In this document: positions 18,583 through 34,861 of the stretch, in pieces
Numbering within the stretch: position 1 is the first letter of the stretch
How the letters are laid out: every line of letters begins with the position of its first letter
DNA from: an uncultured bacterium
GTDB lineage: Bacteria; Zixibacteria; MSB-5A5; UBA10806
Length of the DNA stretch: 64,000 nt
NCBI GenBank assembly: GCA_965541585.1
Contig: CBEUCH010000002.1
Coordinates: 128,001 to 192,000, forward strand
Direction: 5' to 3'
The notes under the pieces: generated by a model
Told to the model about the DNA's origin: nothing
Seen by the model: only the letters and a program-made list of their open reading frames with translations
Database searches by the model: none
Made by a program: the position numbers and the translations under genes

Positions 18583-18792
18583 TTACTCTTCCTCCTTTGA
18601 CCGTCTACCGTAGTAGATCCAGAGATGAACGATGTAGGCGATGATAATCATACTGATCAAAGTGCCCGCAAGATCCATAGTGGTAATTGAACCGGCTATC
18701 AGAACAACGCCGGTTATACCGGCGATAGCAACTACAAAAGCCACAGCCAGGACCCTGAAGAACACCGAGGGTATGAAAATCGGTTCGCCCAT
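18583..18792 (-). CDS. small two-TM membrane protein coupled to the IPTL-CTERM gene
   Basis: TGATG stop/start overlap; two hydrophobic helices and a basic tail. Confidence 0.6.
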   Translation of the reverse strand: MGEPIFIPSVFFRVLAVAFVVAIAGITGVVLIAGSITTMDLAGTLISMIIIAYIVHLWIYYGRRSKEEE

Positions 18793-21626
18793 CAGTTGGC
18801 TCTTGTCAAAGCAGTTTTACGCCTGCGAACAATAGCGATAGTTCCGGCGGTCAGCAACATCAACCCAAGTATGATCATACCCCATTCGGAGAGGGTGGGG
18901 ATGGCTTCGACGACATCATGCGGCGGCCAGATATCATGCTGCGCGCAACCGGCAGGTTCTACAAGCGATGTTATGGGTATAGAGTGATTCACCGCCGGTT
19001 CGGCGCATTGGACACACGGTATTGCCTGAAGTCCGGGTATTAGATCAACAGCGCTGGGACCGATCGGTATGTCAGGTATATCGTCGCAATTACTCACTAA
19101 ATCGCCGACGCTTGATGTATACACGCCGAAGCCCGGATCTGAAAACATCCAGTGACCGTCTTCGATATTCATTAAATCAATGGCCGGGATTCCGTAATCA
19201 CCGTAATCAACATAGTATTCTAAAGCGTCGGATACCCGGGTAAAGACGATTTTCGGGACTACGGGTACATAGGCAAAAAACGTGCCTCCTTCTTCACAGA
19301 CCCGGTCAAAGTTCATTCCGCCTGTTGGCTGCCCGCGGGATTCTGACAGGCACACCTTGACATCCCACGCTTCAGGATTTTGGCCGCCGTTGTAAGTTAC
19401 CGTTATAGGTTGACTACTCACTAAACTCAGCGCCACTATCTCGATATCTATATTATGATCCTGAGAGGGACACTGAGGTAGATTTGCGACTCTACTTCGT
19501 TTGATTATTGTGTCGGTGGGCCCTAAATTCCCGTTAGTCGCCAGTGGCTCACCCTCTAAAGCAATAGTACCGGCGAAAGGATCCGAGCCGGGCCCGAAGA
19601 AGTCAGCCGGTATCGGGAGTGTGCTTTCCCCGCAGCCGAGATTCACAAATGTATTGTAGCCTTCCGGCGTTTCCCACAAGTCGTAAACCGGATCTTCTTG
19701 CACTGGACAATCTACATCAACACAGTTCAGGCCGGGGTAGAAGACGCCGCCGTTATCCTCGCAGATAGACTGGGTTTCCATTGTGCATAAACCATCGGGC
19801 CAGCAGCAGGCGCCTGTTTCCTGAACCGGTTCACTGGTGATGCAGAACGACAGGTCGAGCGATTGCTGACCCGACGGCAGGCATTCGTGCTCGATAATCC
19901 CGGGCTCGTTATCCCAGATTACGAAGTTAAATCCCCTGACATCTACGGAGACCCACTCCGGGTTATACTCCTCAATTAAAAACCCGAAGAACTCAAATAT
20001 TTCATAACCGTTTGGAAGGTCGCTCATAACAACCGGGAAGCGCTCAATATGTATTTCATCAGTCGGTTCAGTCGGTGGGGGCTCACCTGGCGGCCACTCA
20101 GGACCTGACCAGTTGATGGCGATCTCAACCCAGGCGGGAGCCCCGGGATCTAATTTCCATACCGAGCCCATTATGGAGATTTCCTTGTAGCGCGTGAGAT
20201 CGAGCGGGTCATTGTAGAACCAGATATTCCACCAACCGCTGGGGTACCAGAACCATCCATTGATACCACCAGGGCCATTGTAATAATCGGTACCTCCGCT
20301 CATCCCGGGAACGAGCTGCCCGCTTTGATCCATCCCCACCCAGAAGGAGTTGACGACCGGCCCGCCGCCTCCACCGGGCTCGTAAATCTCCGTCCAGAGG
20401 TCAGGAGGAAGCGGGGCATCGGGATCCGGGCCCCAAACCGCATCGTCCATCCAGTGATCCTGGGTTGATTTCCATCCCCAGTGTGTGTTAACCGGATCGA
20501 CGACATCGGCCGAAATCCTCAACCAGTAAATTTGGCCGACTGTCTGCACGCATGGTTCAGGCAGGAAGTAATCGTAACGGAAATATTGCTGGTGGTCACC
20601 GGGGATAATCTCGCCCTGGACAGGATCATACCATCCCTGTGGAGACGGATCCATAAGGGTGGTGGTGTATTCCCCTTCCAGTATATACATCGGGGGGCAG
20701 ACAATTTGGCCCGGTACGCTCCAGCCGTTTGGTCCCACGGGGATATTGTCGTGGATAGTGATCCAAAAGCCCCGGAGTTGGCCGATATCATCATGCCTCC
20801 ACGAACCCCACCAATGGATATCCTCGAGCTGGCCCGTCTCCGTGCACTGCCAGTCATCCGCCAGAGAGATGGGAGCGGTGGCATTAACGTCCCAACCGTT
20901 GGGATCCGGCAGCTGCGGGAAATGCATCTTGTGGTTTGCGCAATCACCGTCTTGGCAATTGGGAGAGTTTGTCTCGGTATCTACCCAGAAAAGCGGAGCG
21001 CCGCCAGAATAATAACTGCTCCACATATACCAAGTGCCCCCAGAATACGCCCAGTGCTCACATGGGACCGGGGGACAGATGAGTGGTTCATCCATTAAAA
21101 ATGAAGGAAGGCTTCCCCCAGGATCGCTATATTCAATACCGATATAGACCGGTCCGTTAACACAGCAGGGAGTCGAATAAGTTAATGGACCCACAGTGGG
21201 ATACTCATAAGTGGCGGCATCACAGATAAAAGTCTCACGGCAGAGTTCCGCGCCGGGTCCCGCGCATGGATCTCCGGGAATCAGCATATCGTATACCACG
21301 AAATCAACCTGAACCGGAAACGGCAAAGCGCCATCGTCATAAAGAGTAATCCACAGTGTAGTTATTTCAAGAGGGTATGTTGGAGCCGGGCAAACCGCCC
21401 ATGGATCATAATATGTGATTGCGCGGTCGCCAGTAACCAAGCCTGGATTATAGTAGCCCGGAATATTGCATGTCTTCGTAAGCAGGCAATAATCAAGAGT
21501 GGTCTGCGGCTGTTCGATAGGCAGTACCTCGCCTATTCTCGAGCCTTTTAGTTCACCCTTCGCCATGGCTGCAGTGCCGAGGATCAGGACAAGGCCGAGG
21601 GTTAAAATCAATGACTTTTTAAGCAT
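18792..21626 (-). CDS. secreted surface protein with IPTL-CTERM sorting signal
   Basis: Ends IPTLSEWGMIILGLMLLTAGTIAIVRRRK; start reassigned to ATG 21626 (MLKKSLIL signal peptide, ggagaa RBS). Confidence 0.85.
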   Translation of the reverse strand: MLKKSLILTLGLVLILGTAAMAKGELKGSRIGEVLPIEQPQTTLDYCLLTKTCNIPGYYNPGLVTGDRAITYYDPWAVCPAPTYPLEITTLWITLYDDGALPFPVQVDFVVYDMLIPGDPCAGPGAELCRETFICDAATYEYPTVGPLTYSTPCCVNGPVYIGIEYSDPGGSLPSFLMDEPLICPPVPCEHWAYSGGTWYMWSSYYSGGAPLFWVDTETNSPNCQDGDCANHKMHFPQLPDPNGWDVNATAPISLADDWQCTETGQLEDIHWWGSWRHDDIGQLRGFWITIHDNIPVGPNGWSVPGQIVCPPMYILEGEYTTTLMDPSPQGWYDPVQGEIIPGDHQQYFRYDYFLPEPCVQTVGQIYWLRISADVVDPVNTHWGWKSTQDHWMDDAVWGPDPDAPLPPDLWTEIYEPGGGGGPVVNSFWVGMDQSGQLVPGMSGGTDYYNGPGGINGWFWYPSGWWNIWFYNDPLDLTRYKEISIMGSVWKLDPGAPAWVEIAINWSGPEWPPGEPPPTEPTDEIHIERFPVVMSDLPNGYEIFEFFGFLIEEYNPEWVSVDVRGFNFVIWDNEPGIIEHECLPSGQQSLDLSFCITSEPVQETGACCWPDGLCTMETQSICEDNGGVFYPGLNCVDVDCPVQEDPVYDLWETPEGYNTFVNLGCGESTLPIPADFFGPGSDPFAGTIALEGEPLATNGNLGPTDTIIKRSRVANLPQCPSQDHNIDIEIVALSLVSSQPITVTYNGGQNPEAWDVKVCLSESRGQPTGGMNFDRVCEEGGTFFAYVPVVPKIVFTRVSDALEYYVDYGDYGIPAIDLMNIEDGHWMFSDPGFGVYTSSVGDLVSNCDDIPDIPIGPSAVDLIPGLQAIPCVQCAEPAVNHSIPITSLVEPAGCAQHDIWPPHDVVEAIPTLSEWGMIILGLMLLTAGTIAIVRRRKTALTRAN

Positions 21627-21728
21627 TAAATTCTCCAATTCTAATTGCTTGAATTTATTGTGCTGTCGAGTCTCAATATTCGGCAACTTTAATATCAGGT
21701 GCAGAGACTCAACACCGCATCTGGATGT

Positions 21729-23009: not shown

Positions 23010-26000
23010 ATGGGGTTGCGTATAATTGTCCTTTCCTTATTTATCCGGGCCACAGCTCTCGGGGTCGAGAGTGGCGATTTTACTTTTTATGACGGCGAAT
23101 CGACTGTAGCCGCCACCGTTCAGCAAGTGGATCGTACCGTTTTAAACCTTCAGATCTCGAACCTCGAATATGAAGTTGATAGCGATAACGGAATAGACCA
23201 ATACCGGATTCATTTGCCGGAGGTGTTTGGCGTATCGAGGGGAGCATTTCTGAGTTCGAATAATGTGTTGATCCCTACCATAACCAGATCCATTGCCGTA
23301 CCGTTTGATTCGGAGCCGGTGTTCCGTGTGACCTGGTCGAATTTTGTGGAATTGACGGATATAGTACTTGCGCCTGCAGGCGAGGAGGAATTGGATTCGT
23401 ATTCCAACGGCAATGAGAATATCTCATCGAGCCTCGAGAGGGACCTGGTGATCGCGGAAACGGCGGGGATGATGCGGGATGTAAGAATATATTCTCTGAC
23501 GATCTCGCCGGTGCAATATGATTTGGAAAGCAAAGTCGTTAAAGTCTATAACGAAATTGAAATCGAGATCGACCATGGCGGTTCACGGATGGTACGTTAC
23601 GAGGACCATATATCGGAGGCTTTCTTGCCGATCTATCGCTCGTTTCTGGATAATCTCCTGGTGTTCGACCCGATTGAGGTAACCCGTGGCGCCGACTGGA
23701 TCATATACCCCGATCCTTTCCTCGAACATATACGGCCCATAGCGGAATGGAAAAGGGCCAAGGGTTATGATGTTGAATATATTGCCAAAAGCGATATTGG
23801 CTCCAACCCATCGTATGTGGCTATAAGAGACTATATCTCGGCGCGTTTCGACTCGTGTCAGATTAAGCCGGATTATATTACCATCCTGGGAGACGTCAGC
23901 ATGCCGTCCGGTTATGGAATCCCTACGCGACACTATGATAATCCTCTGGGTTTTGGCGATATAGAATCGGATAATTACTATACGTTTCTCCTGGGTGGCG
24001 ATTATTTCCCGGATGTGTTAATAGGGAGAATAGCCATAGACTACGTTGCCGAGCTTGAGGATTACACGGATAAGCTTTTCACATACGAGAGAACCCCGTA
24101 TATGGATGATACACGCTGGTATTTGAGGGGGACCATGGTCGCGTATTGGGAAGTCGAAGGCGACGGCGGCTGGTATGGAAATTTCACAAGCCCCAGAATC
24201 ACGAAGCTCTGGTGTCGCGATCGCATGTTTGAAAGCGGATATATCCAGGTAGATACTCTTTTCGAACATCCCCGGTATTATGTTCCTTCCAGCCAGATCA
24301 ACGCCTCTATAAACAATGGCGTATCCTATGTGAATTACCGCGGCTTTGGCGATCCATCCGGATGGAGTTACCCTTATTACACATTTAATGATATTAGCGA
24401 TCTTACCAACGGTCCCATGTATCCTATAATGACATCCATCGTTTGCGGGACAGGAGACTATAATGACTACCGCGACATCTGTTTCGGCGAGGCCTGGATA
24501 CGCTATCCGGACAAGGGCGGGGCAGGATTCATTGGCACCAGTAACCACGATGCTCACACGCGATGGACTAACGCTCTGGATGTAGGTATTTACTGGGGCC
24601 TGTTCGTAGAACATGCAACGACTATTGCCCAGGCCCAACTAATGGGAAAGATGACGATGTACGACGCTTTCCCAACCGACCGTTATCCCAACGGCCAGGT
24701 CGAGCTTTATTTCAATAGCTACAATATCCTTGGTGATCCGGAGTTGAATTGCTGGACCGGAGTGCCGAGAAGCATGTCGGTGGCTCATGCCGATTCGGTG
24801 GAATTCGGTCAGAATTATATAAGCGTATCCGTCACCGATAATATGGGGGGCACGCCTCTCGAGGGAGCTTATGTCTGTATATGGAAAGATGGGGAACTGT
24901 TCCTTGGGGAATTTACTCCCGCGGACGGTGTCGCTGAATTCGCGGCCGGACCGGATACCAGGGGCGAGATGGCCTTAACGGTTACTGCCCGCGACTTTGC
25001 CCCTTATGAGGGAACCGTTACCTATTTCACCAGCGAGATAACAGTGGGATACAATTCTCATACGGTTGACGACAACAACGAAGGCGAGTCCTCAGGCAAC
25101 GGCGACGGAATCTGCAGCCCGTCGGAGGTTGTAGAGCTCGACCTTACCCTTGAAAATTATGGCCAATCGGAAACCGCTATCGGGGTGACCGCGGAGATAT
25201 CGTCGGATAACTCTCATGTGGAGATTGTGCGCGCTACAGCCGGTTTCGCCGATATTTCTCCGGGCGAGAGCAGCCCCGCCGATAATCCTTTTTTAATAGA
25301 GGTTAGCCCCGACGCACCAAACGGGACAGGTATCGATCTTATCATTTCCATAAGCGATGAAGATGATAACGCCTGGGAATCCATTATACAGTTGCCCGTT
25401 GAAGCGGCCGAATTCGCAATGGAAGAATTGATCATTCAGGATGACGGCAACGGTATGATAGATCCGGGAGAAACGGTCGAGCTTGTAATAACTCTCGAGA
25501 ATGTCGGTGCACAGCCCATGGCGGGAGCGACCGCGGTATTGAGAACGTCCGACGATCAGGTGACGGTTATGGATTCGACAGCCTTGTTCGGCGACTGCGT
25601 TCCCGGAGGGACTTTCGACAACGATGGCGACACGTTTATGTTAACGGTGGAATCCGATATTTATGTAGGACATTTGATAAACTTTACTCTGGAGTTCGAG
25701 GGCGAGGGGCCGCAAATAGTAACATCCGCTTTTGCCGAACAGGTAGGTGCTGTATCGTCGAGTGATCCCATCGGCCCGGACGATTATGGGTATTACTGCT
25801 TCGATAACACCGATTCTGCCTATTCCGATCGCCCGGTATATGACTGGATTGATATCGATACTCAGAACTGGAATCACGTAACATTGGGCGACGACAACAC
25901 GGAGACGATATCGCTGCCGTTTGAGGTTTGGTACTATGGGCAGATTTTCAGTGAGATCACCATCTGTGACAACGGCTTTGTGGCCCTGGGCGAATCCTGG

Positions 26001-26705
26001 TGGAACGCCTGGTACAATACGTCGATTCCCGCACCTCAGAACGCCGCCGCTATGATCGCGCCTTTCTGGGATGACTTCAATCAGAGCAATCTTAGAGTAT
26101 ATTACCATCACGATACCGACAACTCCCGCTTCATAATCGGGTGGAATAATGCCTGGGACCAGGACGTTTACCGGTACCAGACATTCGAGATAATCTTTCT
26201 GGATCGAACCGCCTGGCCGTCCGCCACCGGCGATAACGAAATAATCTTCCAGTATGAGCTTGTTAATAGCGCTTATTCGTCGTCGGTGGGGATCTGTTCC
26301 CCCGATAGAAGAGATGGTATCGGTTATATTTTTAATGGCGATTACGCTGATGGTGCGGCAACCCTAAATAACACCCGGGCCGTGAAATTCACGACCGGAT
26401 CTCTATACCAGACCGGTATTGAGGAAGAGCAGGAGTTGCCGGAGAGCATGGCGCTATCTCAAAACTATCCTAATCCCTTTAATGCCTCTACCTCCATCGA
26501 TTTTTCGATTCCCGGGGAAGGACACGTAAAGCTCGAGGTATTCAATATCCTCGGGCAGAGGATCGCCATCCTGATCAATGGTCATCTGGATGCGGGCTTC
26601 CATCGGATTGCATGGGGCGCTGACGATTTGCGTTCGGGGATTTACTTTTACAGGCTGGAGACCGGTGATCTGACCGAAACAAAGAGAATGATGCTTTTGA
26701 AATGA
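23010..26705 (+). CDS. second C25 (gingipain-like) secreted protein with FlgD/T9SS-A-like tail
   Basis: IAEWKRAKGY, YITILGD, YNILGDPEL, IVCGTG; paralog of 5695..10029. Confidence 0.85.
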   Translation: MGLRIIVLSLFIRATALGVESGDFTFYDGESTVAATVQQVDRTVLNLQISNLEYEVDSDNGIDQYRIHLPEVFGVSRGAFLSSNNVLIPTITRSIAVPFDSEPVFRVTWSNFVELTDIVLAPAGEEELDSYSNGNENISSSLERDLVIAETAGMMRDVRIYSLTISPVQYDLESKVVKVYNEIEIEIDHGGSRMVRYEDHISEAFLPIYRSFLDNLLVFDPIEVTRGADWIIYPDPFLEHIRPIAEWKRAKGYDVEYIAKSDIGSNPSYVAIRDYISARFDSCQIKPDYITILGDVSMPSGYGIPTRHYDNPLGFGDIESDNYYTFLLGGDYFPDVLIGRIAIDYVAELEDYTDKLFTYERTPYMDDTRWYLRGTMVAYWEVEGDGGWYGNFTSPRITKLWCRDRMFESGYIQVDTLFEHPRYYVPSSQINASINNGVSYVNYRGFGDPSGWSYPYYTFNDISDLTNGPMYPIMTSIVCGTGDYNDYRDICFGEAWIRYPDKGGAGFIGTSNHDAHTRWTNALDVGIYWGLFVEHATTIAQAQLMGKMTMYDAFPTDRYPNGQVELYFNSYNILGDPELNCWTGVPRSMSVAHADSVEFGQNYISVSVTDNMGGTPLEGAYVCIWKDGELFLGEFTPADGVAEFAAGPDTRGEMALTVTARDFAPYEGTVTYFTSEITVGYNSHTVDDNNEGESSGNGDGICSPSEVVELDLTLENYGQSETAIGVTAEISSDNSHVEIVRATAGFADISPGESSPADNPFLIEVSPDAPNGTGIDLIISISDEDDNAWESIIQLPVEAAEFAMEELIIQDDGNGMIDPGETVELVITLENVGAQPMAGATAVLRTSDDQVTVMDSTALFGDCVPGGTFDNDGDTFMLTVESDIYVGHLINFTLEFEGEGPQIVTSAFAEQVGAVSSSDPIGPDDYGYYCFDNTDSAYSDRPVYDWIDIDTQNWNHVTLGDDNTETISLPFEVWYYGQIFSEITICDNGFVALGESWWNAWYNTSIPAPQNAAAMIAPFWDDFNQSNLRVYYHHDTDNSRFIIGWNNAWDQDVYRYQTFEIIFLDRTAWPSATGDNEIIFQYELVNSAYSSSVGICSPDRRDGIGYIFNGDYADGAATLNNTRAVKFTTGSLYQTGIEEEQELPESMALSQNYPNPFNASTSIDFSIPGEGHVKLEVFNILGQRIAILINGHLDAGFHRIAWGADDLRSGIYFYRLETGDLTETKRMMLLK

Positions 26706-26775
26706 TATCCGGCAAGATAGTGGTTGGTCTTTCAGGAAGATGCGCAGCATTTAACATGTTGAAAGACAAAATGAT

Positions 26776-26799
26776 AAGGGCGCAGATGACGCCCTTTTC
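26776..26799 (+). terminator. terminator-like hairpin
   Basis: aagggcg-cagatga-cgccctt followed by T residues. Confidence 0.55.
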
Positions 26800-26875
26800 A
26801 TATTGACGAAAAAACGTTTTTGATTATATTGAATTGATGAAAGAAATTATCGATAAGTTGTTCAAGGAGTTTTCG

Positions 26876-28729
26876 ATGCGATCTGGCATGCTGATTTTCG
26901 CAGTATTGATCCTGCTCTCATATGCTCCCGAGTCTGGCGCTCAACTTCCTGAAATATATACCAGGTACAGCGATGCTCTGCAAACCCTGGCGGATCTGCA
27001 GGGAGATTATCCGGAGATCTGCAAGCTGGATACCATGGGTTATTCCACCCGTGACTCCATCCCCATGCTGAGAGTCAAGATTTCGGACAACGTTAACATT
27101 GACGAAGATGAACCTGCGATCTTCTATTGCGGGGGAGTCCACGCCGACGAGGTGTTGAGCGTGGAGGTCGTTATGTCATTTGTACAGGATATTCTGATTC
27201 GTTACGGGCGTGGAGATCCCGATGTCACCCGCTATATAGCCAGCCTCGAAATATTCTGTATCCCGTTCATCAATCCCGAGGGGCATATAGTGGTGGAGGA
27301 GGGGGATACCGAATGGCGCAAGAACAAATGTGACAACGACGACAACGGGATATTCGATTTTCACGACGGCGTCGACAACAACCGCAACTATGATTTCGGC
27401 TTTTGGATAGACGACGGCCCCAACGCCACCACTCCGGAATCTCTCACGTACAAGGGCGAGGCTCCGTTCACCCAGACCGAGAATATCGCTATGGCGGAGT
27501 TCGGATGGAAGTATCGGCCGCTTATAGCGCTGGATTACCATTCGCCGACCTACGGCAGACCCAACGTGGCGTATTATCCGTGGTACTGGTATGCCAATGA
27601 AGGCGGTAATGGTTTCGGCCCCGATGAAACCCTGATGCAATCTGTCTGCGCATTATTTGCATCATTAATAGAAGCCATACCGGATGATTCGGGCAACGGC
27701 ACTTATACGGCCAGGAGGGCTCTGGTCAACAAAGGTGATTTCAAGACATATTTCTACGGTAACTTCGGAACTGCGGCCTTTTCGGTGGAGGTTTCCGACA
27801 CTACGATCCAGAACCCTGCTCTGGTTGACACAATAGTCGCCGCTCATCTTCCGGGGCAATATTATCTTCTCGAGCGGGCTCTGGGTGCAGGTATTACAGG
27901 GGTCATCCGGGATTCTGTCACGCTGGAGCCGATCGAGGCGGAGGTGCAGGTTCTCCAGCATATTAACGCTGATATCAATCCCCGTCTGTCCAGGCCTGAT
28001 TACGGACGCTATCGCCGGCTGCTGTCTTCGGGAAGCTATACATTGAAGTTTCTCAAAGACGACTATAGAACCATAACGGTCTACAATGTCGGGGTGACGA
28101 ACAGCGGGCCGACCGAGGTCAACATGCTTCTATCCCCGCTGTATCCGCGGCCGCCGGCGCCGGTTTTGAGCTACCCGCCCGAGGATACGACCTTAAATGA
28201 CAACCTGGTGGTTTTCGACTGGAATCCATCGGATCTGGCGGATTTCTATCTCTTCGAGCTTTATCAGCATCCGGACCTGGAGACTCCGGTATATGTCGAT
28301 TCCTCCTTAATTGATACATCGTTCACTCTCGACACCCCTCTTTCGGATACGGTTTACTACTGGATGGTTAAAGGGGGCAACTCCAACGGCTGGGGCCCGT
28401 ATTCGGATCTGTGGATGTTCGTTGTGAATACCGAGACGGGAACAGATGATCCCGTCCACCAGCCTCGCGCCTTTGAGTTGTATCAGAATCATCCCAACCC
28501 GTTTAATACCTCCACCCTGATCGAGTACAATCTGCCTTCAGCTTCGGATGTAACGCTTGAAATTTACAACATACTCGGTCAGAGGGTAGCGATACTTTTG
28601 GATAGAACCCTGCAGGCCGGGGAGCATAGTATCAAATGGGATGCATCCGGTTTTCATTCCGGCGTCTATTTTGTGAGGCTGGAGGCTGAGGGGTATACCG
28701 AAAATATCAAGATCGTATTGCTAAAATAG
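26876..28729 (+). CDS. M14 zinc carboxypeptidase with FlgD/T9SS-A-like tail
   Basis: GVHADE, NPEG, WRKN, GVDNNRNY, DYHS; start moved to ATG 26876 (aaggag RBS). Confidence 0.9.
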   Translation: MRSGMLIFAVLILLSYAPESGAQLPEIYTRYSDALQTLADLQGDYPEICKLDTMGYSTRDSIPMLRVKISDNVNIDEDEPAIFYCGGVHADEVLSVEVVMSFVQDILIRYGRGDPDVTRYIASLEIFCIPFINPEGHIVVEEGDTEWRKNKCDNDDNGIFDFHDGVDNNRNYDFGFWIDDGPNATTPESLTYKGEAPFTQTENIAMAEFGWKYRPLIALDYHSPTYGRPNVAYYPWYWYANEGGNGFGPDETLMQSVCALFASLIEAIPDDSGNGTYTARRALVNKGDFKTYFYGNFGTAAFSVEVSDTTIQNPALVDTIVAAHLPGQYYLLERALGAGITGVIRDSVTLEPIEAEVQVLQHINADINPRLSRPDYGRYRRLLSSGSYTLKFLKDDYRTITVYNVGVTNSGPTEVNMLLSPLYPRPPAPVLSYPPEDTTLNDNLVVFDWNPSDLADFYLFELYQHPDLETPVYVDSSLIDTSFTLDTPLSDTVYYWMVKGGNSNGWGPYSDLWMFVVNTETGTDDPVHQPRAFELYQNHPNPFNTSTLIEYNLPSASDVTLEIYNILGQRVAILLDRTLQAGEHSIKWDASGFHSGVYFVRLEAEGYTENIKIVLLK

Positions 28730-28890
28730 CGGCGGCACCAGTCTTGGTTTTACCGCCAGACCAAACTTGTTGATTTCCGGCAAGCACAAAAGGCTTGACT
28801 TCTAAATATCTTTTATTACAATATTTATAGGCATAATCATGAAATAGCAGCGCGATTTGACCGCGAGAATAAGTACCTCAATTGGAGGTT

Positions 28891-31056
28891 ATGATGAGAA
28901 GGACTAAAGTTTTATTGTTGGCGATGTTATGCTTTTCAATCGCCGGTTTAGCATCCGCCCAGAATGTTGAGTATGTCAACTCAACGCTCTGGAATGGCTT
29001 GGGGGAGGTCAAAATCGTCGGCGATTATGCATACTGTGCCTTTTACAATGGCTTGATGATTCTTGATGTCACGAATCCGACCTCTCCATCTGTGGTGGGC
29101 CAGGTAGTTGGTCAAGGTCATGGAAATGGATTAGACGTTTCAGGTGATTACGCGTACCTGGTTAATACGTACGAGGATCTGCAGATAATAGACATCGCAA
29201 ACCCTGCCCTCCCGATATTATTAGGAAGTTACAGCACGCCGAGTGACGCTTCCGGTGTTTTTGTGGTCGATAACTACGCATACATAGCGGATGGCTATTC
29301 TGGCCTGCAGATCATAGACGTTGCCGATCCTATGAATCCGACATTTGTGGGGAGCTACGACACGCCGCACTTTGCCAAGGACATCTTCGTGGTTGGTAAT
29401 TACGCCTACGTGGCTAATTCATCTACTGGCCTGCTAATAATCGATATCGCGGATCCTGAAGATCCAACATTGGCGGGAAGCTACAATACTCCAGGATACG
29501 CTCAAGCAGTCTTTGTGGTCGGCGATTATGCATATGTTGCGGATGGTAGCTCCGGCGTACGGATAATCGACATCTCTAACCCGGCCTACCCCACACTGGA
29601 AGCAAGTTATGACACGCCAGGTTATCCTTCTGACATATATGTAATGGGTAGCTACGCTTTTGTAGCTGATGGTGATTCTGGCCTGTATATAATCGATGTC
29701 TCGAATCCTTCGAACCCCACTCATGTGGGGAATCACGATACGCCTAGGGATGCCACAGGGGTTTTCGTTACCGGCGAGCATTGTTATATTATTGACTATG
29801 ATCTTGTCCTGCAGATAATTGAGATCACCGATCCTTTCAATCCGATACTGGCAGGGAGTTTCGATACGCCTGGTTATGTACAGAGTGTTTTCCTTGCCGG
29901 GAATTACGCCTATGTTGCAAATCACATTTCAGGCTTGTGGATAATCGATATCAGCGACCCCGCCAGCCCAACACCGGTGGGATTTCACGATACACCGGAT
30001 AATGCTCGTGACGTTTTCGTGTCAGATAGTTACGCCTACGTGGCTGCTCATATTTCCGGCCTGCAGATAATAAACGTCGCCGATCCGGCCAACCCGACAT
30101 GGGTAGGAGGTTACGATACACCTGGTTCTGCGACGAGCGTTTTCGTCGACGACAATTACGCTTATGTGGTTAATAGTATTAGTGAGGGTGGCCTGCAAAT
30201 TATCGACGTCTCCAATCCTGCCAGCCCGACACTGGCGGGAAGTTATGATACGCCCAATAATGCTTATGGGATTTTCGTTGACGGCGGTTACGCTTACGTA
30301 GTTGAGGGATATGCCAGCGTGGAGAGTTGGGGTCGACTGCACATAGTTAGCATTGCCGACCCTGCGAATCCGGCTCTGATCGGAATTTATGAAACAGGTT
30401 TGCCCGGAGGTGTCTTTGTTGCCGGTAGTTATGCCTATGTAGTTTGCACTGATTATCGTCATTTCGAACCCGATATTTATAGTCTGGTGATAATTGATAT
30501 CGATGACCCTGCGAATCCCACAACAGTTGGAAGTTATGAAACACCAGAATTTGCCAGCCGCGTAGTTGTGGCTGGCAATTACGCCTATTTGGCTGTCAAT
30601 TATTATGGCGGCCTGCAGATAGTCGATATTGCCGATCCTGCGAATCCAACTCTGGCGGGAAGCTACGACACACCGGGCTGGGCTCGCGGCATTTCAGTGG
30701 ACGGCGATTTTGTATATGTAGCTGATCGCCATTCGCTAATGGTCCTTAGTTTTGGACCTGAAAATGATATTGAGGAGTGGAATGATCTCCCCCGAGAGTT
30801 CTCACTTGGGCAAAACTACCCCAACCCGTTCAATGCTTCCACCCTGATCGAGTACAATTTGCCTTCAGCTTCCAATGTAAGAATCGAAATCTACGACATC
30901 CTTGGCCGCAAAGTTGAAACGCTTGTGGACCAAAAAAAGCAAGCCGGTTATCATCAGATTACGTGGAATGCCTTTGACAAATCCTCGGGAATGTATTTTT
31001 ATAAGGTTCGGGCGGGGGAGTATACCGGGACGAAGAAGATGGTGTTGTTGAAGTAG
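28891..31056 (+). CDS. secreted LVIVD-repeat double beta-propeller protein with sorting tail (paralog of 1496..3601)
   Basis: AQNVEYVNSTLW N-terminus shared with the first gene; 14 blades; GQNYPNPFN...KKMVLLK; ggaggtt RBS. Confidence 0.9.
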   Translation: MMRRTKVLLLAMLCFSIAGLASAQNVEYVNSTLWNGLGEVKIVGDYAYCAFYNGLMILDVTNPTSPSVVGQVVGQGHGNGLDVSGDYAYLVNTYEDLQIIDIANPALPILLGSYSTPSDASGVFVVDNYAYIADGYSGLQIIDVADPMNPTFVGSYDTPHFAKDIFVVGNYAYVANSSTGLLIIDIADPEDPTLAGSYNTPGYAQAVFVVGDYAYVADGSSGVRIIDISNPAYPTLEASYDTPGYPSDIYVMGSYAFVADGDSGLYIIDVSNPSNPTHVGNHDTPRDATGVFVTGEHCYIIDYDLVLQIIEITDPFNPILAGSFDTPGYVQSVFLAGNYAYVANHISGLWIIDISDPASPTPVGFHDTPDNARDVFVSDSYAYVAAHISGLQIINVADPANPTWVGGYDTPGSATSVFVDDNYAYVVNSISEGGLQIIDVSNPASPTLAGSYDTPNNAYGIFVDGGYAYVVEGYASVESWGRLHIVSIADPANPALIGIYETGLPGGVFVAGSYAYVVCTDYRHFEPDIYSLVIIDIDDPANPTTVGSYETPEFASRVVVAGNYAYLAVNYYGGLQIVDIADPANPTLAGSYDTPGWARGISVDGDFVYVADRHSLMVLSFGPENDIEEWNDLPREFSLGQNYPNPFNASTLIEYNLPSASNVRIEIYDILGRKVETLVDQKKQAGYHQITWNAFDKSSGMYFYKVRAGEYTGTKKMVLLK

Positions 31057-31088
31057 GCCTTTAGTTATGTTTAAAGAGGGAGACAAGT

Positions 31089-31196
31089 ATGGGCGATAAG
31101 GGAAAAAAGGATAAGGGTAAAAGAGAGCAGCAGAAAAAGAGCAAGCATAGCTTATTGGAAAAGCGAAAACTTAAAAAAGAAAAAAAGAATAAATAG
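31089..31196 (+). CDS. small, very basic 35-aa protein
   Basis: MGDKGKKDKGKREQQKKSKHSLLEKRKLKKEKKNK*; RBS gagggag; followed by a terminator; below the ORF-track cutoff. Confidence 0.65.
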   Translation: MGDKGKKDKGKREQQKKSKHSLLEKRKLKKEKKNK

Positions 31197-31227
31197 AACC
31201 TAGAATAACTGAGAATGACAAAACCAT

Positions 31228-31257
31228 GGGGAGTTACATCGACTCCCCTCTCTTTTT
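31228..31257 (+). terminator. Rho-independent terminator
   Basis: ggggagt-tacatcg-actcccc followed by tctcttttt. Confidence 0.7.
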
Positions 31258-31326
31258 GCCCTGTCACTCGCCGGCTGGGCATTTGCCCGGCATGTTAAGT
31301 ATGCGGGTGGCTACGATACGCCGGTC
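31254..31326 (+). pseudogene. collapsed relic of an LVIVD-family gene
   Basis: DNA aligns with 1529-1577; reads LSLAGWAFARHVKYAGGYDTP versus LSFAGSAFAQNVEY...GYDTP. Confidence 0.7.
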
Positions 31327-31435
31327 AACATTAAAGGCTTGACTTCTAAGTAGTTTCTATTATCTATAGTTGTAGACACAATCAGGATATTGCAGTTGCG
31401 GTTGGCAACAAGGATAAATACCTCGCCCGGGGGAC

Positions 31436-33880
31436 ATGATGAGAAGAGTCATAATTATTTCGCTGGCATCTCTTTTGTTGTTGGCCGGAAATGCCTTTAC
31501 CTTTGAGCCGTTATTTCATGCCAGGATTGATTACGGGGCCGGGGATGGTCCTAATTCAGTTTTCGCGGTTGACCTCGATAACGACGGCGACAATGACCTG
31601 GCCGTGGCTAATGAGAACTCCAACAATGTCTCAGTCATCCTGAATAACGGTGACGGGACATTTCAGGCGGCGGTTAATTACGGGGCCGGGGAAGCTCCTG
31701 TTTCGGTTTTCGCGGTTGACCTCGATGGCGATGGCGACAATGACCTGGCGGTGGCTAATAGGTTTTCCGACAATGTCTCAATCCTTCTGAATAACGGTGA
31801 CGGGACATTTCATGCGGCGGTTAATTACGGGACCGGGGATGAACCTAGTTCAGTTTTCGCGGTTGATCTCGATGGCGATGGCGATATTGACCTGGCAGTG
31901 GCTAATGCTGGCTCCAGCAATGTCTCAGTCCTTCTGAATAATGGTGACGGTATATTTCAGGCGGCGGTTAATTACGGGGCCGGGATTGGACCTCGTTCAG
32001 CTTTCGCGGTTGACCTTGATGGCGATGGCGACAATGACCTGGCCGTGGCTAATGAAGGTTCCCACAATGTCTCGGTTCTTCTGAATAACGGTGACGGGAC
32101 ATTTCAGGCAGCGGTTAATTACTTGGCCGGGGATAGACCTGTTTCAGTTTTCGCGGTTGACCTCGATGGCGTTGGCCACAATGACCTGGCCGTGGCTAAT
32201 GTTGGTTCCGACAGTGTATCAGTCCTTCTGAATAACGGTGACGGGACATTTCAAACAGCGGTTAATTATGGGGCCGAGGATTTTCCTTCTTCAGTTTTCG
32301 CAGTTGACCTCGATGGCGATGGCGACAATGACCTGACCGTGGCTAATCGGTATTCCGACAATGTCTCAGTTCTCCTGAATAACAGTGACGGGACATTTCA
32401 AGAGGCGGTTAATTACGGGACCGGGGGTGGTTCTGTTTTAGTTTTCGCGGTTGATCTCGACGGCGATGGCGATAATGACCTGGCAGTGGCTAATGCCGGC
32501 TCCGACAATGTCTCAGTTCTTCTGAATAACGGTGACGGTATATTTCAGGCGTCGGTCGATTACGGGGCGGGGAGTTGGCCTATCTCAGTTTTCGCGGCTG
32601 ACCTCGATGGCGATGGCGACAATGACCTGGCCGTGGCTAATGGTTATTCCTACAATGTCTCAGTACTTCTGAGCAACGGTGACGGGACATTTCAAGAGGC
32701 GGTTAGTTACGAGGCGGCGTATGGCCCCTCGTCAGTTTTCGCAGTTGACCTCGATGGCGACGGCGACAAAGACCTGGCTGTAGCTAATGATGGTGGCTTT
32801 TATGGCTACGAATGTGTCTCGGTGCTTCTGAATAACGGTGACGGTATATTTCAGGCGGCAGTCATTTATGATACCGGAGATGGTCCTGTTTCTGTTTTCG
32901 CGGTTGACCTCGATGGCGATGGAGACAAAGACCTGGCCGTGGCTAATTATGACTCCGAAAATGTCTCAGTCCTTCTGAATAACGGTGACGGGACATTTCA
33001 GCCGGCAGTTAACTACGGGGCCGGTAATTCGCCTACCTCAGTTTTCGCGGTTGACCTCGATGGCGATGGCGATAATGACCTGGCCGTGGCTAATGAAGGT
33101 TCCCACAATGTCTCGGTTCTTCTGAATAACGGTGACGGGACATTTCAGGCAGCGGCTAATTACAGGGCCGGAGATTTTCCTTCTTCAGTTTTCGCGGCTG
33201 ACCTCGATGGCGATGGCGACAAAGACCTGGCCGTGGCTAATCGTTTTTCCTACAATGTCTCAGTCCTTCTGAGCAACGGTGACGGGACATTTCAGGAGGC
33301 GGTTAATTACGGGGCCGGAGATTTTCCTTCTTCAGTTTTCGCGGTTGACCTCGATGGCGATGGCGACAATGACCTAACCGTGGCTAATCGTTTTTCCTAC
33401 AATGTCTCAGTCCTTCTGAACAACGGTGACGGGACATTTCAGGCGGCGGTTAATTACGGCGCCGGAGGTTTTCCTTCTTCAGTTTTCGCGGTTGACCTCG
33501 ATGGCGATGGAGACAATGACCTGGCCGTGGCTAATTATCGCGCTAAAGATATTTCAATATTGATAAATCTTTCAAGCACGACAGGTGTGGATAATTCTCC
33601 CGAAGCATCTTTGCCTGAGAGTTTCGGTATTTCTCAGAACTATCCCAACCCCTTTAACGCCTCTACAGTAATTCAATACAATATACCTTTAGCTTCCGAT
33701 GTAATAATCGACATTTATGATATCCTCGGCCGCAAGGTTGAGACGCTGATTCAGGGAGAACAGCAAGCCGGGTATCATCAGATAACATGGGATGCGAAAG
33801 GTCAATCTTCCGGCATGTATTTTTACCGTATTCAGGCGGGGGAATATTCTGAAGCCAAAAAGATGTTGTTGTTGAAGTAG
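31436..33880 (+). CDS. secreted FG-GAP/VCBS-repeat double beta-propeller protein with sorting tail
   Basis: 14 DLDGDGDNDLAVAN repeats of 49 aa; SQNYPNPFN...KKMLLLK. Confidence 0.92.
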   Translation: MMRRVIIISLASLLLLAGNAFTFEPLFHARIDYGAGDGPNSVFAVDLDNDGDNDLAVANENSNNVSVILNNGDGTFQAAVNYGAGEAPVSVFAVDLDGDGDNDLAVANRFSDNVSILLNNGDGTFHAAVNYGTGDEPSSVFAVDLDGDGDIDLAVANAGSSNVSVLLNNGDGIFQAAVNYGAGIGPRSAFAVDLDGDGDNDLAVANEGSHNVSVLLNNGDGTFQAAVNYLAGDRPVSVFAVDLDGVGHNDLAVANVGSDSVSVLLNNGDGTFQTAVNYGAEDFPSSVFAVDLDGDGDNDLTVANRYSDNVSVLLNNSDGTFQEAVNYGTGGGSVLVFAVDLDGDGDNDLAVANAGSDNVSVLLNNGDGIFQASVDYGAGSWPISVFAADLDGDGDNDLAVANGYSYNVSVLLSNGDGTFQEAVSYEAAYGPSSVFAVDLDGDGDKDLAVANDGGFYGYECVSVLLNNGDGIFQAAVIYDTGDGPVSVFAVDLDGDGDKDLAVANYDSENVSVLLNNGDGTFQPAVNYGAGNSPTSVFAVDLDGDGDNDLAVANEGSHNVSVLLNNGDGTFQAAANYRAGDFPSSVFAADLDGDGDKDLAVANRFSYNVSVLLSNGDGTFQEAVNYGAGDFPSSVFAVDLDGDGDNDLTVANRFSYNVSVLLNNGDGTFQAAVNYGAGGFPSSVFAVDLDGDGDNDLAVANYRAKDISILINLSSTTGVDNSPEASLPESFGISQNYPNPFNASTVIQYNIPLASDVIIDIYDILGRKVETLIQGEQQAGYHQITWDAKGQSSGMYFYRIQAGEYSEAKKMLLLK
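31528..33570 (+). repeat. intragenic 147-bp tandem repeat array with high DNA identity
   Basis: ttacggggccgggga at 31531 and 31678 (period 147); 14 units. Confidence 0.95.
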
Positions 33881-34012
33881 TGGCTGCACTTCAGGCAGTG
33901 TTTTGCCTTCGCACCTTCTTTAAAGCTACCGAATTCTATTATTATATCCCTGTTTAATTATGATATCCACATTTCCGATTGACAAGTAGATAGCCTCCGT
34001 TAAATTACCGCT

Positions 34013-34861
34013 ATGAAGAAAATGCCCGACGATATCGAACTTATCCGGCTCGCGCTGGCCGAGGATGCAGGCCGCGGAGATATCACCACCCAGGCCCTGA
34101 AACTGAAAGGCCGGAAGGGCGAGGGGGTGGTGATAGCCAGGGACGCAGGAGTGATCTCGGGTATCGGGCCGTTAAAAAAGGTTTTCCAAACCCTGTCCCC
34201 GTCGTTTTCGTTTAAGGTATTGCAAAATGACGGCCGTCCGGTAAAGCCGGGCGATGAGATCATCCGGATAAAAGGGCCTCTGGATTCAATGCTCACCGGA
34301 GAGCGTACGGCGATGAATATTATCGGCCATCTATCCGGTGTGGCAACTCTGACGAGAGCTTTTGCAGATGCGATCGAAACACCTCCTGCAAAAATATATG
34401 ATACCAGGAAGACAACTCCCGGGATGCGGGCCTGGGAGAAAAAGGCCGTCCTCCATGGCGGCGGGGCCAACCATCGTATGGGCTTACATGATATGTATCT
34501 GGTCAAAGAGAATCATATCGCCGCAGCCGGAGGGCTTGAAGCGGCCATGCGGCTGGCAATCGCGCACAGGCGAAAGACGAGAGCTAGGCTGGAAGTGGAA
34601 GTTCGCAATCTCTCCGAATTGAAAAAGGTACTGCCGTTTAAGCCTGATTACATTCTTCTCGATAATTTCACGGTCCCGGGGCTAAGAAAGGCCGCTAAGC
34701 TTGCGAAATCTATTCGTCCGGGGATAGTCCTCGAAGCTTCAGGACGAATCGATTTGAAAACAGTCAAAAAGATCACCGCTACCGGTATCGATCGTATCTC
34801 GATCGGTAAGCTCACGCATTCGGCGCCGGCGCTGGATCTATCGTTTAAGGTGATAGGTTGA
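34013..34861 (+). CDS. nadC: nicotinate-nucleotide pyrophosphorylase (carboxylating)
   Basis: EDAGRGDITT, DTRKTTPG, NHRMGLHD, ILLDNF, EASG. Confidence 0.95.
   Translation: MKKMPDDIELIRLALAEDAGRGDITTQALKLKGRKGEGVVIARDAGVISGIGPLKKVFQTLSPSFSFKVLQNDGRPVKPGDEIIRIKGPLDSMLTGERTAMNIIGHLSGVATLTRAFADAIETPPAKIYDTRKTTPGMRAWEKKAVLHGGGANHRMGLHDMYLVKENHIAAAGGLEAAMRLAIAHRRKTRARLEVEVRNLSELKKVLPFKPDYILLDNFTVPGLRKAAKLAKSIRPGIVLEASGRIDLKTVKKITATGIDRISIGKLTHSAPALDLSFKVIG

Follow-up and report, generated by a model that had tools for sequence, protein, structure and literature searches.

How can a gene hold fourteen tandem repeats alike down to their synonymous sites while the same six codons differ from one repeat to the next? 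The question is raised by an open reading frame (ORF) at 31436..33880 of the + strand, coding for 814 amino acids (aa), in a 64,000-nucleotide stretch of DNA (hereafter the window; positions 128,001 to 192,000 of contig CBEUCH010000002.1, GenBank assembly GCA_965541585.1) from an uncultured bacterium of the Zixibacteria. The source genome, called G000 here, is 3.52 Mb long, in 40 contigs, and 98% complete. The answer that we favor, with a probability of about one half, is that the gene encodes a secreted or surface-exposed 14-blade propeller with diversified pockets, in which the framework is homogenized by recombination and the loop differences are kept by selection.

Pfam matches the protein to FG-GAP_3 (PF13517) in 14 stretches (E 6.3e-131; 427.5 bits against a cut-off of 26.9), and Tandem Repeats Finder reports a single array (31530-33535; period 147, 13.6 copies, 81% matches). 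Cut at 31514-33583, the array yields 14 units; 13 have 49 aa (147 bp) and unit 9 has 53 aa (159 bp), its surplus coming from a longer second loop. The variable residues occupy unit columns 11, 12, and 14 (in the motif G-xx-P-x-S) and 34, 35, and 37 (in N-xx-S-x-N). Across the 14 units, the proportion of nonsynonymous differences (pN) at single variable columns is 0.42-0.71; pooled, the six variable codons have a pN of 0.58 and a proportion of synonymous differences (pS) of 0.46, as against 0.10 and 0.27 for the 43 framework codons. Variation in the loop codons involves all three positions and all bases, third positions (0.46) less than first (0.67), and at four core loop codons no majority codon is left. 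The DxDxDG cation loop, in the 1-2 loop of the blade, is kept in 13 of the 14 units, the exception being DLDGVG in unit 5. The units are listed below with the residues of columns 11, 12, and 14, then 34, 35, and 37.

31514..31660, + strand: unit 1, an end unit and more divergent; loops DG-N and EN-N; calcium loop DLDNDGDND
31661..31807, + strand: unit 2; loops EA-V and RF-D
31808..31954, + strand: unit 3; loops DE-S and AG-S
31955..32101, + strand: unit 4; loops IG-R and EG-H
32102..32248, + strand: unit 5; loops DR-V and VG-D; the sole unit with a broken DxDxDG (DLDGVGHND)
32249..32395, + strand: unit 6; loops DF-S and RY-D
32396..32542, + strand: unit 7; loops GG-V and AG-D; Pro13 replaced by Ser and Ser15 by Leu
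32543..32689, + strand: unit 8; loops SW-I and GY-Y
32690..32848, + strand: unit 9 (53 aa); loops YG-S and a long 2-3 loop, DGGFYGYE
32849..32995, + strand: unit 10; loops DG-V and YD-E
32996..33142, + strand: unit 11; loops NS-T and EG-H
33143..33289, + strand: unit 12; loops DF-S and RF-Y
33290..33436, + strand: unit 13; loops DF-S and RF-Y; with unit 12, the only pair alike in all six variable residues
33437..33583, + strand: unit 14, an end unit with a degenerate second half (DISILINLSSTT); loops GF-S and YR-K

Just how alike is the framework? An earlier note on this DNA had called it almost invariant, which overstates the case: framework DNA is about 88% identical (internal units: mean 0.881, standard deviation 0.037, range 0.798-0.946), and the gene has only one exact self-match of 45 bp or more, an 82-bp tract in two copies:

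32033..32114, + strand: 82-bp identical tract, copy 1, from unit 4 codon 27 to unit 5 codon 5, spanning site 2 (EGSH)
33074..33155, + strand: 82-bp identical tract, copy 2, units 11 to 12

Where two units have the same residue, their codons differ in 18.7% of cases, whereas genome codon usage would predict 64%; the likeness of the units is thus far beyond chance or codon bias. Furthermore, the framework consensus chooses differing synonymous codons at differing positions. In the adjoining LVIVD propeller array (28882-31056), which served as a control, unit identity is 57% and pS is 0.74.

All of the loop strings listed in the earlier note occur in the 14 units; it had omitted DGPVS, DFPSS, DFPSS, and GFPSS at the first site (units 10 and 12-14), and AGSD and YRAK at the second (units 7 and 14). 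Its observation that units 4 and 11, and units 6 and 13, share variants is borne out (EGSH, inside the 82-bp tract; DFPSS and Thr30), but the whole-ring duplication that it suggested is not: pairs seven units apart are no more alike (823 of 5000 permutations reach the observed whole-unit value), and their framework identity, 0.864, compares with 0.84-0.87 at most other offsets and 0.744 at offset 13, a single pair. Units 4-6 and 11-13 resemble each other somewhat more than random triples do (115 of 20000; triples chosen post hoc, with the 82-bp tract included), which we read as local duplication or conversion of about three units, not of a whole ring; the 82-bp tract is a mark of such local conversion or duplication.

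If the units are so alike, are they simply young? G000 has at least five genes with the same blade DNA, the window gene included, and its relatives have dozens. The paralogs in G000 are:

C19:60068-61615: at least 10 units, running off the contig
C3:225335-226756: 7 units and a sorting domain
C16:85066-86055: running off the contig
C12:3-548: at the contig start

More distant FG-GAP arrays of G000 are found on C12, C9, C29, and C3. When 35 G000 units are pooled, the same six columns stand out, and the units carry 34 distinct six-residue loop sets; long 2-3 loops like that of unit 9 recur in the C19 paralog (DGGYFGHG, SGGDEGYG, VGTDPENPGY). Framework pS is 0.27 within genes and 0.28 between them. 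Between paralogs, framework pS is 0.25-0.27, whereas that of the C-terminal domain (CTD) and linker of those genes is 0.50-0.63, so the blade likeness is a property of the repeats and not of recent gene duplication. The homogenization proposed in the earlier note is thus upheld: codon bias and protein constraint are insufficient to explain the likeness, and the effect is restricted to the repeats. In the framework tree, first and last units of the paralogs group by position, internal units of different genes are intermixed, and 8 of the 12 sister pairs unite units of different genes. Distances between the 28 internal units are uncorrelated from one segment to another (r -0.21 to 0.19), which leaves no hierarchical duplication history: the relations are star-like or recombined. 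Both within and between paralogs, the units show the concerted evolution or repeat exchange of the fungal NWD type. A gene of the congener G001 (L080:3111-5438, 13 units) has a 5′ end and blade DNA like those of the window gene (80% over 2 kb), a cysteine-rich tail like that of C12:39676-42057, and different flanks; this hybrid make-up suggests that arrays may have recombined between paralogs.

Could the array be a product of assembly, a chimera stitched by short reads from blades of several genes or organisms? Arrays end at contig ends at three places in G000 (the end of C19, the end of C16, and the start of C12) and in all three cases in G106, a more distant genome introduced below (the end of C53, the end of C51, and the start of C1); blade arrays thus interrupt assembly from short reads, and the copy numbers are to be read as minima. 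In public metagenomes, too, the contigs that cover the repeats are short pieces. However, the window gene lies inside a 306-kb contig with housekeeping genes on either side, its longest exact repeat is 82 bp within the gene and 58 bp to paralogs, its reading frame is intact across the 14 units, and the single-contig genomes G008 and G023 carry many such arrays within the chromosome; an artifact is very improbable. Among public reads, the stretch was found in no run, the five listed runs holding at most 0.07 of its words; four runs gave short contig fragments only, 90-99% alike, many fitting two places and none spanning the gene, and these derive from the repeats and sorting domains of relatives.

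How far does the common framework reach? Homologs are present in all 12 other genomes of the same family that were searched, and at E 1e-60 or better in 17 of 21 relatives overall. The best ones, in G008 and G007, have different neighbors and no synteny. The low-divergence arrays of G000, G001 (same genus), G008, and G007 (two other genera) have the majority codon in common at 39-42 of the 43 framework positions, and for an array of G015, from another family, the figure is 36 of 43. Between genomes, framework pS is 0.25-0.36, the same as the within-gene level, and a gene-specific framework nucleotide is absent in 8 of 9 low-divergence genes. As a yardstick, nadC was compared with that of G000: its pS and residue identity are 0.31 and 0.90 in G001, 0.45 and 0.81 in G002, 0.71 and 0.65 in G007, and 0.71 and 0.60 in G008.

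The likeness extends further still. In a scan of 201 genomes of the phylum with a 294-bp query, 21 matched at E 1e-30 or better, and the best match outside G000 was in G106, which belongs to the same class, lies outside the 24 genomes of the order that were searched, and is taken here as another order. The match is 86-89% identical, equal to the level between paralogs of G000; the G106 array has 14 units, and its majority framework codons are those of the window gene at 43 of 43 positions. Framework pS is 0.16 within G106 and 0.22 between G106 and G000; because 0.22 is the mean of the two within-genome values, the net framework divergence is about zero. Elsewhere, the two are saturated: pS is 0.61-0.69 in the CTD and linker, 0.60-0.63 at the N-terminus, and 0.75 in nadC (49% residue identity). 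A binning artifact in G106 was considered and rejected, as the flanks on the same contigs have only 43-69% protein identity to G000, with 53-54% G+C. Among the 99 analyzable of the 120 best database homologs, median framework residue identity is 0.49; the window protein has 0.82, and one of the 99 is higher. A survey of 29 arrays with at least four scorable units (249 units in 31 genes) gave framework pS of 0.24-0.82, with loop pN at 0.44-0.70 throughout. Divergent arrays of relatives are nearer to G000 units than to their own (for example, 0.55 vs. 0.69), which places the G000 blades near the center of a star.

Such a star, together with the uncorrelated segment distances, would suit a recent amplification from one master blade whose loops then diverged fast under positive selection for binding or folding; amplification of this kind has been proposed for highly repetitive propellers, and a class of highly repetitive VCBS propellers has been described (Pereira and Lupas, 2022; PMC9218822). 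Loop pN exceeds framework pS in 12 independent sister pairs (0.58 vs. 0.19; Fisher p 7e-20), loop nonsynonymous divergence (dN) is about 3.4 times framework synonymous divergence (dS), and the loss of a majority codon at the core loop codons points the same way. If the framework is homogenized, however, its dS is an invalid yardstick. Within the loops, the ratio of nonsynonymous to synonymous change is about 1.5 in the 12 sister pairs (p 0.015) and about 1.2-1.3 in 44 pairs over 126 units (p 0.12), both near saturation, so the dN/dS above 1 that the earlier note expected is obtained only against framework dS, and rapid selected divergence is not clearly indicated. Recent duplicates in G008 (L064/L059 and L061/L063) have loop pN of 0-0.13 at framework pS of 0.10-0.19, and other pairs at equal framework distance have 0.33-0.82; hence the loops do not hypermutate, and their history is not that of the framework. 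Moreover, the nonrepeat parts of the paralogs are older than their repeats, and the master codons are also found in genomes in which nadC is saturated, so a recent burst in a single lineage is not the whole story. On balance, we consider this explanation rather unlikely.

Might the loop codons instead be mutated by a program, that is, by a diversity-generating retroelement or a like system? Variation limited to set codons of a template-like repeat, with third positions less variable than first, has that appearance. But the codons vary at all positions and to all bases, recent duplicates keep their loops, no template-repeat/variable-repeat pair was found, and RVT_1 is absent from all six genomes with this blade type (G000, 98% complete, and five others, two of them single-contig). 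The idea is largely refuted, and we give it next to no credence. The likening of the loops to antibody complementarity-determining regions in the earlier note is apt as to composition and geometry but breaks down as to process, given the lack of a reverse transcriptase in the six carrier genomes and the loops kept by recent duplicates.

Neutral concerted evolution does not fit the cross-genome pattern, because it predicts a lineage-specific consensus. Since the consensus is not lineage-specific and the termini are not similar, two possibilities remain: exchange across lineages at the level of blades, or selection on the framework DNA. Two forms of transfer were rejected: (i) of whole units, since loop triplets shared between genomes are at chance (4 and 8 observed, 4.9 and 7.4 expected) and no exact match between genomes is longer than 65 nt; and (ii) of whole genes, since, between genomes with blade DNA in common, N-termini and CTDs have diverged to saturation. 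A phage carrier was sought with a 32-base framework word, which matched no viral contig. In metagenomes, that word matches 46 times, at 19 loci, and these hold 63 distinct units with 62 distinct loop sets, none in common with G000. It is possible, although we regard it as doubtful, that the framework is kept alike at synonymous sites as the homology substrate of a recombining blade pool that crosses lineages: paralogs would swap loop segments continually and unrelated genomes of the Zixibacteria class occasionally, each cell assembling its propellers from a common pocket library. Arrays out of recombination range would then decay into the “old” arrays of relatives. If true, the pool would be a germline, recombination-built binding repertoire in bacteria.

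Does the diversity of the loops need an adaptive explanation at all? Exact matches, whether between units, paralogs, or genomes, reach 54-65 nt at most, which is as long as the stretch of framework from one loop site to the next. Short-tract conversion could homogenize the 57-69 bp framework segments and stop where loop mismatches block heteroduplex extension, leaving unconstrained loops to drift without adaptive diversification; the within-loop dN/dS near 1, the variability of the six positions in all homologs, and a loop pN independent of array age agree with this. Yet the residues are not what drift would leave. The 210 loop residues of G000 include 39 D, 29 G, 20 Y, 18 S, 13 H, 13 R, 9 W, 5 L, 1 K, and 0 P, a nonrandom composition (chi-square p 3e-46) enriched in D, G, Y, H, W, E, and N and depleted in L, T, P, K, Q, and M; the metagenome loops (378 residues) are of similar make-up (67 D, 54 Y, 47 G, 37 S, 27 N, 27 R, 19 W). 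Loop residues are clearly selected for type. In addition, the 82-bp identical tract crosses site 2, so tracts can pass loop codons, and a by-product of conversion leaves the cross-order framework identity unexplained. We judge this account, too, to be improbable, and think that selection for binding diversity maintains the loop differences; the make-up of the loops indicates that they are selected, and to name diversity as the target goes, we think, further than the residue data.

Recombination with selected loop diversity thus remains the preferred reading, and several points weigh against it. Loop pN is 0.44-0.70 in old and young arrays alike, and neutral loops that block conversion would look the same. 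The six positions are also the nonconserved positions of the superfamily, with a median loop identity of 0.12 in the same 99 of 120 homologs. Within-loop dN/dS, at 1.2-1.5, is not robustly above 1. Recombination within a genome cannot explain one framework consensus in other genera and another order. Finally, the placement of the variable residues, to which we now turn, is deduced from homology and blade topology.

Where on the propeller would the variable residues lie? A profile of the 14 units matches the calcium-loop blades of integrin alpha-IIb, with the DxDxDG loop aligned to its calcium loops; one built from 40 family members matches a secreted esterase (9oee, 6e-24), the lectins PVL (3.5e-20) and AAL2 (6.9e-16), CRTAC1, and integrins. 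The whole protein, searched with phmmer against the PDB, matched nothing, whereas the profiles did. In the HMMER alignment to PVL, columns 11-14 fall in the segment connecting strand 4 to strand 1 of the next blade and columns 33-38 in the 2-3 loop. These two elements build the N-acetylglucosamine (GlcNAc) pocket of each blade in PVL and AAL2, according to the part of the lectin study available (PMC4483166), and the DxDxDG loop, in the 1,2-loop, lies with the 3,4-loop glycine at the blade end opposite the FG-GAP motif in the part available of Chouhan et al. (2011; PMC3192720). By homology, both variable sites would therefore be two halves of a lectin-type pocket in each blade, opposite the calcium loops, in keeping with the single binding face predicted in the earlier note. 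The lectin pocket residues themselves (Asn/Asp, Gly-Gly-Trp, His) are not kept: the aligned positions are the variable columns 11-14, and the “GW” insertion is absent, so the protein is not a member of the PVL/AAL2 family, and it is the geometry of the pocket that is probably like theirs.

The mechanism that we propose follows the order of the protein. The Sec signal peptide and the type A sorting domain of the type IX secretion system (T9SS) predict a secreted or cell-surface binding protein. Its body would be two seven-bladed propellers of the integrin/VCBS type, since paralogs and relatives carry 7 or 14 units and the solved homologs have 7 blades. One face would present the DxDxDG calcium loops of 13 of the 14 blades; the other would carry the residues that differ from blade to blade, three in the 4-to-1 connecting segment and three in the 2-3 loop, so that the protein most likely displays 14 different small pockets, or two composite binding surfaces, where a multivalent lectin has pockets that are all the same. 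Recombination among units and paralogs would keep the framework DNA alike while the loop codons stay different. The parts outside the array are:

31333..31446, + strand: upstream element of about 110 bp, 72-83% identical to regions preceding five other G000 genes (the LVIVD gene, the paralog C3a, and genes on C29, C17, and C5)
31436..31498, + strand: Sec-type signal peptide (MMRR, hydrophobic run, GNAFT), with limits set by eye from the translation, without a predictor
33584..33640, + strand: linker (GVDNSPEASLPESFGISQ...), conserved in the paralogs C3a, C12s, and C16 and in the G106 gene
33641..33877, + strand: T9SS type A C-terminal sorting domain (PF18962, TIGR04183)

The sorting domain is recognized as Por_Secre_tail (PF18962) at aa 736-810 (41.2 bits, cut-off 27) and by NCBIfam TIGR04183 (44.9 bits, cut-off 23). 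SprA (TIGR04189), the only T9SS component searched for, is present in G000 (558 bits, cut-off 200), and this 3.5-Mb genome has at least 150 T9SS type A sorting domains above cut-off (150 of the 187 candidates scored). Besides the FG-GAP repeats and the sorting domain, Pfam finds nothing on the 814-aa protein, so that it lacks the nucleoside triphosphatase (NTPase) or effector domain of an NLR. The upstream element may be a promoter or leader common to T9SS cargo genes; its + strand gave no sigma-70-like site, and Rfam has no match in 31000-34100.

The gene is the last of four consecutive T9SS cargo genes on one strand (23010-33880), each with a Por_Secre_tail; the other three are:

23010-26705: C25 (gingipain-family) peptidase, T9SS cargo
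26834-28729: M14 carboxypeptidase, T9SS cargo
28882-31056: LVIVD propeller of 14 repeats, T9SS cargo

A lysine-rich small ORF of 35 codons (MGDKGKKDKGK...; 31089-31196), which has no Pfam match, lies between the LVIVD and FG-GAP genes and is followed by a strong hairpin and T tract at 31228-31257. In a congener (L022:1-3814, compared with 26834-34861 of the window), the interval from the carboxypeptidase-like gene to nadC contains a sensor kinase and a response regulator instead; the LVIVD and FG-GAP genes are thus accessory at this locus. On the − strand at 18792-21686, a 964-aa protein with DUF7901 and an IPTL-CTERM sorting motif points to a second kind of surface sorting signal nearby. Other FG-GAP arrays of G000 (C12:39676-42057, also L006:571-2946; C9:83524-85896; C29:16581-18422) carry, in place of a terminal T9SS domain, a duplicated cysteine-rich tail (…YIPGDCN.N..P.EL.DV…YRG…CPDCPG), which is also found in L080 of G001 and in L059 and L062 of G008, has no Pfam match, and resembles a dockerin-type module. 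Another highly repetitive array, of a different kind, is that of C6:91776-94001 in G000, a 742-aa protein with a metalloprotease-like head and FG-GAP-type repeats of about 70 aa, several of them identical or nearly so at the protein level.

Why does this matter? A regular, calcium-stabilized blade with six freely variable, predicted pocket residues would be a natural “library on a scaffold” and a candidate for binder engineering, and the near-unique loop sets (34 of 35 G000 units and 62 of 63 metagenome units) suggest that this uncultured sediment phylum has an extensive, as yet unstudied set of extracellular binding proteins. Across orders, the framework has next to no net synonymous divergence, yet the remainder of the genes and one housekeeping gene have reached saturation; such a pattern requires either horizontal exchange of blades or selection at the DNA level, and either would be informative on how repeat proteins evolve.

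How does the gene compare with known systems? In cassette variation systems such as Borrelia vls and Neisseria pilE/pilS, conserved framework DNA flanks short variable segments, and gene conversion moves these segments. Here, unlike in those systems, all copies appear full and expressible, with their own signal peptide and sorting domain, and neither silent cassettes nor a single expression site were seen among the copies of the blade genes. In mode of evolution, there is a likeness to the fungal NWD/HNWD genes (HET-E/D/R), whose WD40 propeller repeats are near-identical, are exchanged within and between paralogs, and vary at just a handful of sites on the interaction face (Dyrka et al., 2014; PMC4986451, as far as the available text goes). 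Theirs, however, are intracellular NLR-type receptors in which positive selection has been shown, whereas ours is a secreted FG-GAP protein without an NTPase domain, and synonymous-site conservation across orders is not part of the fungal picture in that text.

Bacterial integrin-type propellers include more regular forms with one calcium site per repeat, like ours; loop diversity and a multigene family are not described in the available part of that study (Chouhan et al., 2011; PMC3192720). Unlike the propellers of integrin alpha subunits, the window protein has no beta-subunit partner and no thigh or calf domains. With the lectins PVL (PDB 2bwm, 4up4) and AAL2 (4tqj), it shares a sequence repeat shifted by one strand relative to the blade and calcium in the 1-2 loops; by contrast, the lectin pocket residues (Asn/Asp, Trp, His) are the same from blade to blade, giving six equal GlcNAc sites, and the lectins bind calcium in two blades, whereas here the residues differ per blade, the motif is present in 13 of 14 blades, and a T9SS tail follows (PMC4483166, in the part available).

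Propellers with high internal identity make up less than 1% (Smock et al., 2016, in the part available). VCBS propellers, about 20% of the propeller set of Pereira and Lupas (2022; PMC9218822), are linked there chiefly to carbohydrate recognition, and the highly repetitive ones resemble ours in their tandem DxDxDG blades, high internal identity, and a blade number that varies among close relatives; the words “hypervariable” and “variable positions” do not occur in the passages of that paper available. A search of the literature, with subscription journals and supplements outside its reach, found no paper on hypervariable loops in bacterial FG-GAP arrays or on Zixibacteria together with FG-GAP, and FG-GAP goes unmentioned in an eLife survey of diversifying bacterial conflict systems. 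Independent amplifications, as deduced by Pereira and Lupas (2022) from propeller-specific nucleotides, differ from what is found here, where 8 of 9 genes lack a gene-specific nucleotide and majority codons are common across genera and orders. Judged from its sequence, the gene is a member of the FG-GAP/VCBS family and a predicted T9SS cargo; what appears to be new is the conservation of blade DNA across orders combined with individually diversified putative pockets.

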